Part shown: positions 1 to 3,000 of the stretch, piece by piece | Numbering within the stretch: the stretch's first letter is position 1 | How the letters are laid out: every line of letters starts with the position of its first letter | Virus record (IMG/VR): IMGVR_UViG_2711768018_000012 | Reading direction: 5' to 3' (one strand) | DNA: 6,704 bases | Source: a virus | Taxonomy: Duplodnaviria > Heunggongvirae > Uroviricota > Caudoviricetes | Position numbers: made by a program

Positions 1-3000
1 CGCGGATTGAGCTGACGCCGGGCTATTTTCAGATAACCGCCACGCCGCATCTTGCGGTTTATGATCCGACGGTACAGTTTGAGTTCTGGTTCTCGGAAAA
101 GCGGATTGCGGATATCAGGCAGGTTGAAACCACAGCACGCTATCTTGGCACGGCGCTGTACTGGATAGCCGCCAGTATCAATATCAAACCGGGCCATGAT
201 TATTACTTTTATATCCGCAGTGTGAACACCGTTGGCAAATCGGCATTCGTGGAGGCTGTTGGTCAGCCGAGTGATGATGCATCCGGTTATCTGGATTTTT
301 TCAAAGGCGAGATAGGGAAAACCCATCTGGCTCAGGAGCTGTGGACGCAGATTGATAACGGTCAGCTTGCGCCTGACCTGGCTGAAATCAGGACGTCCAT
401 TACGGATGTCAGCAATGAAATCACGCAGACCGTCAATAAGAAACTGGAAGACCAGAGTGCGGCAATTCAGCAGATACAGAAGGTTCAGGTTGATACAAAT
501 AATAACCTGAACAGCATGTGGGCTGTGAAGCTGCAGCAGATGCAGGACGGACGCCTTTATATCGCGGGTATTGGTGCCGGTATTGAGAACACCCCTGACG
601 GCATGCAGAGTCAGGTGCTGCTGGCGGCGGACAGGATTGCGATGGTTAATCCTGCGAATGGCAACACAAAACCGATGTTTGTTGGTCAGGGCGATCAGAT
701 ATTCATGAACGACGTGTTCCTGAAACGCCTGACGGCCCCCACCATTACCAGCGGTGGAAATCCATCGGCATTTTCCCTGACTCCGGACGGAAAGCTGACC
801 GCTAAAAATGCGGATATCAGTGGCAGTGTGAATGCGAACGCCGGGACGCTCAACAATGTCACGGTAAATGAAAACTGTACGATTAAGGGCATGCTGGAGG
901 CGACTCAGGTCAGAGGTGACTTCGTTAAAGCTGTATCCAAATCATTTCCGAAACAGGCTGGTACGTGGGGTAACACGGAAACACCAAACGGGACGGTTAC
1001 AGTCACCATAAGCGATGATCATAACTTTGACCGCCAGATTATTATTCCGCCCATTATTTTTAACGGTATAGCGTATGACGATCCGGGGAGCGGAAATAAC
1101 CCAGGAGGCACGCGATACACGGGTTATGGTTTTGAAGTTCGCAAAAACGGCGTATTAATCGCATCCAGAGAAACTAAAGGTGCCATTCCCGGTAGTTACA
1201 GTGCAGTTATTGATATGCCTAGTGGTGGTGGTAGCGTCACTCTGGAGTTTAAGATTTTCCAGAAAGGCAATCAGGGGGCAGGCAATATCACCGACTGTAC
1301 GGTGATTGTGACCAAAAAAGCGGCTTCCGGCATCAGTATTCGTTGAAATATTTATAACCCCAATAAATGGCGTCAGGAATGACGCCTTTTTTATTGCAGA
1401 AAAGCGAGAGGTAATTATGCGTAAAGTTTGTGCAGCAATTTTGTCCGCAGCCATTTGTCTGGCCGTATCCGGTGCGCCTGCATGGGCGTCTGAACATCAG
1501 TCCACGCTGAGCGCGGGGTATCTTCATGCCCGGACCAACGTTCCCGGCAGTGATGATCTGAACGGGATTAACGTGAAATACCGTTATGAGTTTACGGATA
1601 CGCTGGGGCTGGTGACGTCATTCAGCTATGCAGGAGACAAGAATCGCCAGCTGACCCGTTACAGCGATACCCGCTGGCATGAAGATTCCGTTCGTAACCG
1701 CTGGTTCAGCGTAATGGCGGGGCCGTCTGTGCGCGTGAATGAATGGTTCAGCGCGTATGCGATGGCGGGTGTGGCTTACAGCCGTGTGTCGACTTTTTCC
1801 GGGGATTATATCCGCGTAACTGACAATAAGGGGAAAACGCACGATGTGCTGACCGGAAGTGATGACGGTCGCCACAGCAACACGTCTCTGGCGCACTGAC
1901 GGTTTCATCGTGGGTGTCGGTTATAAATTCTGATTAGCCAGGTAACACAGTATTATGACAGCCCGCCGGTTCAGGCGGGCTTTTTTGTGGGGTGAATATG
2001 GCAGTAAAGATTTCAGGTGTACTGAAAGACGGCACAGGAAAACCGGTACAGAACTGCACAATCCAGCTGAAAGCAAAACGTAACAGCACCACGGTGGTGG
2101 TGAACACGCTGGCCTCAGAAAATCCGGATGAAGCCGGGCGTTACAGCATGGACGTTGAGTACGGGCAGTACAGCGTTATTCTGTTGGTGGAGGGATTCCC
2201 GCCGTCACATGCCGGGACCATCACCGTGTATGAAGATTCCCGACCCGGTACGCTGAATGATTNCAAAAAGTGCTGCCGCTGCAGAGTCCTCAAAAAGCGC
2301 GGCGGCTACCAGTGCCGGTGCGGCGAAAACGTCAGAAACGAATGCGGCAGCGTCACAACAATCAGCAGCCACTTCTGCATCCACCGCGACCACGAAAGCG
2401 TCAGAAGCTGCCACCTCAGCCCGGGATGCGTCGGCTTCAAAAGAGGCGGCAAAATCATCAGAAACGAACGCATCATCAAGCGCCAGTAGCGCAGCTTCCT
2501 CGGCGACGGCGGCTGCAAATTCTGCGAAGGCGGCCAAAACGTCCGAGACGAACGCCAGGTCTTCTGAAACGGCAGCGGGACAGAGTGCCTCAGCTGCGGC
2601 AGGCTCAAAAACAGCGGCTGCGTCGTCTGCCAGCGCCGCGTCAACAAGTGCCGGGCAGGCCTCAGCCAGTGCCACCGCCGCCGGAAAATCGGCAGAAAGC
2701 GCCGCATCATCCGCTTCAACAGCCACAACGAAGGCTGGCGAAGCCACTGAGCAGGCCACGGCAGCAGCGAGGTCAGCTTCCGCAGCGAAGACATCCGAAA
2801 CGAACGCGAAAGCGTCGGAAACCCGTGCAGAATCCTCAAAAACGGCTGCCGCATCGTCCGCCAGTTCGGCGGCGTCATCGGCATCATCGGCGTCTGCTTC
2901 AAAAGATGAGGCGACCAGACAGGCGTCAGCAGCGAAGGGCAGCGCCACGACGGCATCCACGAAGGCGACAGAGGCTGCTGGTAGTGCGACGGCAGCAGCT

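Follow-up and report, generated by a model that had tools for sequence, protein, structure and literature searches.

The central tail fiber gene J at the left end of this sequence ends in the phage 434 ("h434") allele of the J receptor-binding domain (RBD), a module that is already known and ordinary. Our analysis covered a stretch of 6,704 nucleotides from a tailed virus (IMG/VR record IMGVR_UViG_2711768018_000012), and "the window" means this whole stretch. The J encoded in it belongs to the lambda gpJ family. In lambda, the C-terminal tip of J binds LamB. Introducing the 434 tip is the classic case of a J exchange after which the phage adsorbs to OmpC instead of LamB; the h434 allele goes back to the early era of lambda genetics. 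Judged by its sequence class, the tip described here is of the 434 type and very probably binds OmpC. A preliminary description of the window had recognized a J C terminus that is strongly diverged from lambda yet alignable, and this holds for residues 300 to 447. What it missed is that the tip is a long-known, named allele and more than a diverged lambda tip.

Nucleotides 3 to 1346 of the plus strand form an open frame of 447 codons (stop codon at 1344 to 1346) that enters from the left edge of the window, and its translation contains the peptides quoted in the preliminary description. The product is the C-terminal part, 447 residues long, of a central tail fiber (tip attachment protein) of the lambda J type. 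Window residue 1 is equivalent to lambda J residue 719, the first ~718 codons of J lie outside the window, and the full-length protein has 1165 aa in the close relatives phi458 and NCTC9967. Pfam recognizes Ig_J_second (aa 2 to 100, 129 bits), Phage_Tail_Tip (aa 154 to 282, 109 bits), and Ig_GpJ_C (aa 311 to 446, 91 bits, against a cutoff of 26.2 bits); all three matches exceed their own cutoffs. This order of an Ig/FNIII-like domain, a tail-tip fiber, and a C-terminal Ig-like RBD is that of a lambda-type J. The same is true of the position of the gene upstream of lom, stf, and tfa, where the Pfam matches are Ail_Lom, phage_tail_N (N terminus of stf), Collar and Phage_fiber (C terminus of stf), and Caudo_TAP (tfa). 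A phmmer search of PDB sequences returned lambda gpJ (8iyk, 8xcj/8xck) and the A8 gpJ 713 chimera (9wca/9wcb) with E-values of 1e-151 to 1e-161, and the matches to lambda gpJ (E = 1e-151) and A8 gpJ713 align out to the final residue of the window J.

Table 1. Segments of J and neighboring features in the window, with protein identity to reference phages
Feature	Position (nt)	Residues	Strand	Lambda	434	phi458	Remarks
Second Ig/FNIII-like domain of J	3..263	aa 1-87 (lambda 719-805)	+	97%	99%	100%	
Central diverged block	264..692	aa 88-230 (lambda 806-920)	+	51%	52%	100%	28-aa insertion relative to lambda
Conserved lower fiber segment	693..851	aa 231-283	+	94%	89%	98%	
Transition zone	852..899	aa 284-299	+	62%	88%	100%	Identity to lambda decays
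434-type (h434) RBD of J, with stop codon	900..1346	aa 300-447	+	39%	95%	97%	17 gap positions relative to lambda
Intrinsic-terminator-like hairpin after J	1369..1393		+				GGCGTCAGGAATGACGCC followed by a T run; terminator annotated at the equivalent 434 site
lom (Ail/Lom outer-membrane protein), 434 type	1417..1899		+	37%	95.6%		Identities are to the lambda and 434 Lom proteins
Strong terminator-like hairpin between lom and stf	1960-1981		+				AGCCCGCC...GGCGGGCT followed by T5; annotated likewise in 434

The segments of J in Table 1 come from protein and DNA alignments with lambda (NC_001416), 434 (OL657226), phi458 (OP434518), and phage 21 (OL657228). The second Ig/FNIII-like domain is conserved across all phages compared. 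Identity to lambda drops twice, in the central block and in the tip, and both drops are far above chance (Fisher p ~6e-13 and 6e-14). At the DNA level, 60-nt windows are 90 to 97% identical to lambda at nt 721 to 840 and 38 to 61% identical at nt 901 to 1346; the departure is gradual from about nt 852 and strong from about nt 885 to 900. The region before nt 850 had been described as nearly identical to lambda throughout. That holds outside nt 264 to 692 and fails within this stretch, where the central diverged block lies, so the region is not uniformly lambda-like. A second diverged block had indeed been noticed there, but its proposed extent (nt 330 to 520) was too narrow.

The assignment of the tip rests on its near-identity to 434. 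Over residues 300 to 447, 141 of 148 residues are identical to 434 J with 0 gaps, the tip DNA is 95 to 100% identical to 434 across most of nt 961 to 1320, and the protein is also 95% identical to the allele in "Lambda h434 imm21" (OM418627). The latter is a classical hybrid bearing the h434 host-range allele (PMC9119081). A blastn search with nt 900 to 1346 in "distant" mode found 74 phage records, each at least 90% identical, including 434, 434B, and "Lambda h434 imm21"; lambda was absent among the best 40 of these 74 matches, and no match fell below 90%. Instead of uniformly high identity to lambda J over the C-terminal domain, the alignment gave 39% with 17 gap positions (against lambda residues ~990 to 1132), which places the tip outside the lambda-type, LamB-binding RBDs. 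Nor does it belong to the A8/phage 21 type (42% identity and 17 gaps against the A8 tip), and in the alignment the phage 21 tip is visibly of another class.

The seven differences from 434 among the 148 tip residues are S314A, Q318K, A319V, N329D, I418V, Q420H, and G425R. Both Q420H and G425R sit in a distal loop that aligns with lambda residues 1099 to 1107, a region associated with host-range changes in lambda. The dN/dS ratio of the tip is 0.14 against 434, 0.08 against phi458, and 0.05 against E. coli NCTC9967, which indicates purifying selection within the 434 class. The tip DNA is itself a patchwork on a small scale: nt 901 to 960 are 100% identical to phi458 and 82% to 434, and nt 1021 to 1260 are 98 to 100% identical to 434 and 88 to 95% to phi458. 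Such a pattern points to recombination between alleles belonging to one class.

Few J tips are commoner in E. coli prophages than the 434-type allele. Of 5426 complete E. coli genomes, 2113 (~40%) carried the tip, in up to 7 copies each, and the J-lom-stf arrangement (nt 1 to 2250) was covered to at least 80% in 2698 of these genomes. None of the 5426 was identical over either stretch, the best matches reaching 98.1% over nt 1 to 2250 and 99.3% over the tip. The closest relative among them is E. coli NCTC9967 (positions 2235231 to 2249563, 98.1%), where the prophage tail region adjoins pinQ, ydfK, ynfT, and ydfJ.

The segment that diverges from lambda extends beyond the J stop codon at nt 1346. 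A blastn comparison of the window with lambda gave no match between nt 903 and 1887 save one 59-nt patch, and lambda homology returns from nt 1888 onward, in the conserved 3'-terminal part of lom; hence, the divergent segment takes in the terminator between the two genes and the greater part of lom. In the same kind of comparison, 434 matches the window continuously over nt 515 to 1893 at 90%. The lom product is cut to 160 aa compared with 199, and its Ail_Lom match covers profile positions 1 to 159 of 199. Compared with E. coli NCTC9967, the gene lacks 83 nt; this deletion, with its junction after nt 1887 and a flanking CTGGCG direct repeat, causes a frameshift and a stop codon at nt 1897 to 1899. 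A 434-type tip and a 434-type lom are probably not strictly linked, because nt 1 to 2250 are covered to at least 80% in ~2700 genomes and the tip occurs in only ~2100.

Further downstream, stf (nt 1992 to 3216) is discontinuous, with a single N at position 2263. Its N-terminal domain (PF08400 positions 1 to 88 of 134) stops at ...TLND, the Ala/Ser-rich repeats (KSAAAAESSK...) proceed in another frame past the N, and ~100 codons found in lambda and NCTC9967 are missing; the break reflects either a true loss of sequence or a junction made during assembly. Two long N-masked runs (nt 3218 to 3759 and 5186 to 5649) lie within stf and tfa. The reading frame differs between the N-terminal piece of tfa (nt 5083 to 5184) and its C-terminal piece (nt 5651 to 5869, Caudo_TAP) on the other side of the mask, so either the length of the mask may be unfaithful or tfa may be disrupted. 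The 3' part of tfa also contains a full-length match to Rfam IS009, a predicted E. coli sRNA family (nt 5634 to 5832, plus strand, 187.5 bits), the first 16 nt of which are masked N. At the right end, nt 5873 to 6704 match IS1A-family elements found in 5030 of the 5426 genomes, the whole 832 nt being contiguous in 280 only. The last ~80 nt (6622 to 6702) match the IS1 end beside insA in phi458, and nt 5873 to 6621 carry no annotation in the matching records.

Could J then be a relic in a defective prophage, its 434-type tip being historical and without a role in adsorption in this strain? The frameshifting deletion in lom, the frame change in the interrupted stf, and the IS1 copy at the right end of the window would fit such a history, as would the Qin-like locus occupied by the homologous prophage in the closest complete genome. 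However, the J frame is open through all 447 codons in the window and the J terminator is intact. Moreover, lambda-type infection requires neither lom nor stf, and the stf of laboratory lambda is itself frameshifted; artifacts of assembly or masking, rather than lesions, may account for the single N and for the masked runs. The damage to lom and stf therefore does not decide whether the prophage is active, and we consider a relic possible but rather unlikely.

A structure prediction of the C-terminal domain, as proposed in the preliminary description, was obtained with AF2 for residues 285 to 447 from an alignment of 14 sequences, including five full-length members that are 44 to 53% identical. 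The homologous-protein search with the tip returned mostly partial proteins and 5 to 6 sequences outside the 434 class, enough for the AF2 alignment but too few for a census of tip classes. The model (pLDDT 75.5, pTM 0.71) is an all-beta domain with the Ig-like beta-sandwich of a gpJ RBD. In the PDB, it is closest to the RBDs of lambda gpJ (8xck/8xcj, 37% identity) and A8 gpJ (9wca/9wcb, 43% identity), which take the first four places with E-values of ~2e-13 and a TMq of 0.73; the next matches are weaker by about nine orders of magnitude. Because the model best matches the RBDs of lambda and A8 gpJ, the fold of the RBD is conserved, while its sequence, and especially that of the loops, has been replaced.

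Exchanging lambda J for the tail fiber gene of 434 moves binding from LamB to OmpC, the receptor of 434 (PMC3509688; PMC11101478), and a later paper cites Hantke (1978) for the OmpC dependence of 434. The preliminary description expected the prophage to recognize an outer membrane receptor different from that of lambda, and the 95% identity of the tip to 434 J argues for this expectation. The tip has the Ig-like beta-sandwich of the lambda tip with different distal loops and, by homology to 434, most likely binds in trimeric form to OmpC, itself a trimeric porin, rather than to LamB. This docking would trigger tail opening on cells that display a suitable OmpC.

The alternative is that the 434-like tip uses another receptor, such as OmpF or LamB, or a restricted set of OmpC alleles, in which case naming OmpC would be wrong or incomplete. 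With one or a few substitutions in J, phage 21 and lambda can widen or change the set of porins that they use (PMC11336670; PMC11101478); phage 21, whose native receptor is LamB, acquires OmpC use through one J mutation (PMC11336670). The engineered tips A8 and 1A2 accept different OmpC alleles. We compared the phage 21 J tip (nt 1828 to 2265 of the retrieved phage 21 stretch) with that of A8 gpJ713 (PDB 9wca). The two are 82% identical, although phage 21 uses LamB and A8 binds OmpC, so the sequence class of a tip does not correspond one to one to a receptor. Finally, Q420H and G425R place two of the changes from 434 in the distal loop region. Against this alternative stand the 95% identity to 434 over the entire domain without any indel, the dN/dS of 0.14 against 434, which argues for a conserved function, and the maintenance of the allele class in thousands of E. 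coli prophages. A literature search for ECOR-derived lambdoid phages (PV340xxx) with the same combination of modules found no relevant receptor data. With receptor use labile and seven differences in the tip, we therefore hold a 434-type, OmpC-binding tip to be very likely and a different or narrower receptor to be improbable. To two further ideas we give little credence, namely, that the substitutions relative to 434 (especially at Q420 and G425) retune the choice of OmpC allele or porin, and that the tip and lom travel together as a ~1-kb cassette for a functional reason, beyond mere linkage.

The central block has a history of its own. At nt 264 to 692, the protein is 100% identical to phi458 and the DNA is 96.5% identical to phage 21, and the block is found in 67 phage records. 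By alignment, it covers the alpha-helical shaft (AHS), here in a long variant, together with the upper part of the beta-prism fiber; lambda J residues 841 to 861 belong to the AHS (PMC11101478). A single-sequence AF2 model of the block predicts helices at window residues 94 to 118 and 124 to 181 (best pLDDT 75 to 90). This model is reliable in its helices alone, the C-terminal third having a pLDDT of <40, and we used it only to call the insertion helical. The 28 extra residues lie within the predicted helical segment, and the long variant would thus have a longer shaft.

The two blocks occur in different combinations. Lambda joins a short central block to a lambda-type tip and 434 a short block to a 434-type tip, while phage 21 has a long block with a tip of a third type (82% identical to A8, which in turn is 42% identical to the window tip), and the window and phi458 have a long block with a 434-type tip. 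Because the types of the central block and the tip re-assort in four combinations, we conclude that modules have been exchanged within J, and the mosaic history suspected in the preliminary description is borne out. We propose that J arose when lambdoid phages underwent homologous recombination with one another in conserved parts of the fiber. One module would be the long alpha-helical shaft (nt 264 to 692), common to phage 21 and phi458; the other, ~1 kb long and of the 434 type (nt ~852/900 to ~1887), would comprise the tip, the J terminator, and lom. For the exchange of the tip, the conserved segment at nt 693 to 851 likely provided the upstream homology arm, and the conserved lom 3' end may have served as the downstream one. 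Directly after the upstream segment, in the transition zone, lies the motif SGTLNNVTI…NC (aa 280 to 292); segment and motif alike are kept in homologues whose RBDs are only 44 to 53% identical.

Receptor-binding tips are known targets of arms races (PMC11101478; PMC11336670), and the J C terminus could in principle have diverged in situ from a lambda-like ancestor by rapid diversifying selection, without acquisition of a module, but the block structure of J effectively refutes this and leaves it a negligible probability: identity steps sharply at the segment boundaries, the tip DNA is 38 to 61% identical to lambda with indels (so that synonymous sites are saturated) and 95 to 100% identical to 434, whose central block differs, the divergent segment runs on into the neighboring gene lom, and dN/dS within the 434 class is well under 1.

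The acquisition of modules thus remains our reading of J, and its main benefit is to annotation: the central fiber would be described as "434-type, probably OmpC-dependent" instead of "lambda-like." Such a label is useful for predicting host range and superinfection and for finding natural J tips for engineered lambda particles, which have already been made with other OmpC-binding tips. The gene also illustrates with textbook clarity how modules are exchanged in the J fiber: shaft and tip re-assort independently, and the tip module reaches into lom. Beyond annotation, the result carries little weight; everything in it is already known, and it raises no new biological question.

Among known systems, 434 J (UMO75286.1, OL657226) and h434 (OM418627) provide the counterpart of the tip, with which they share 95% identity without indels, a 95.6% identical lom, and the order J-terminator-lom-stf. 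434 differs in its central block, to which that of the window is 52% identical while being 28 aa longer, in seven tip residues, and in an untruncated lom. Lambda gpJ (NP_040600.1; 8iyk, 8xck, 8xcj) has the same order of FNIII-like domain, helical shaft, beta-prism fiber, and Ig-like RBD, is 94 to 97% identical in the FNIII-like domain and the lower fiber, and shares the fold of the RBD (TMq of 0.73 for the model against 8xck). It differs in the sequence of the RBD (39%, 17 gap positions), in the central block (51%, and the 28-aa insertion), in Lom (37%), and in binding LamB. The A8 gpJ chimera (9wca; 9wcb with OmpC) shares the Ig_GpJ_C fold and is an experimentally demonstrated OmpC binder, and phage 21 J shares the long central block (96.5% at the nucleotide level) and natively uses LamB; both, however, belong to a separate sequence class of RBD, the A8 tip being 42% identical to that of the window. 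The closest counterpart of the whole arrangement is phi458 (OP434518), which is 96.8% identical at the nucleotide level over nt 1 to 1400, with a 100% identical central block and a 97% identical RBD at the protein level, and from which the window departs at nt 1021 to 1260, where it is nearer to 434. The same two modules are combined as in the window in cdtI, mEp332, ev243, and several Stx2a phages.
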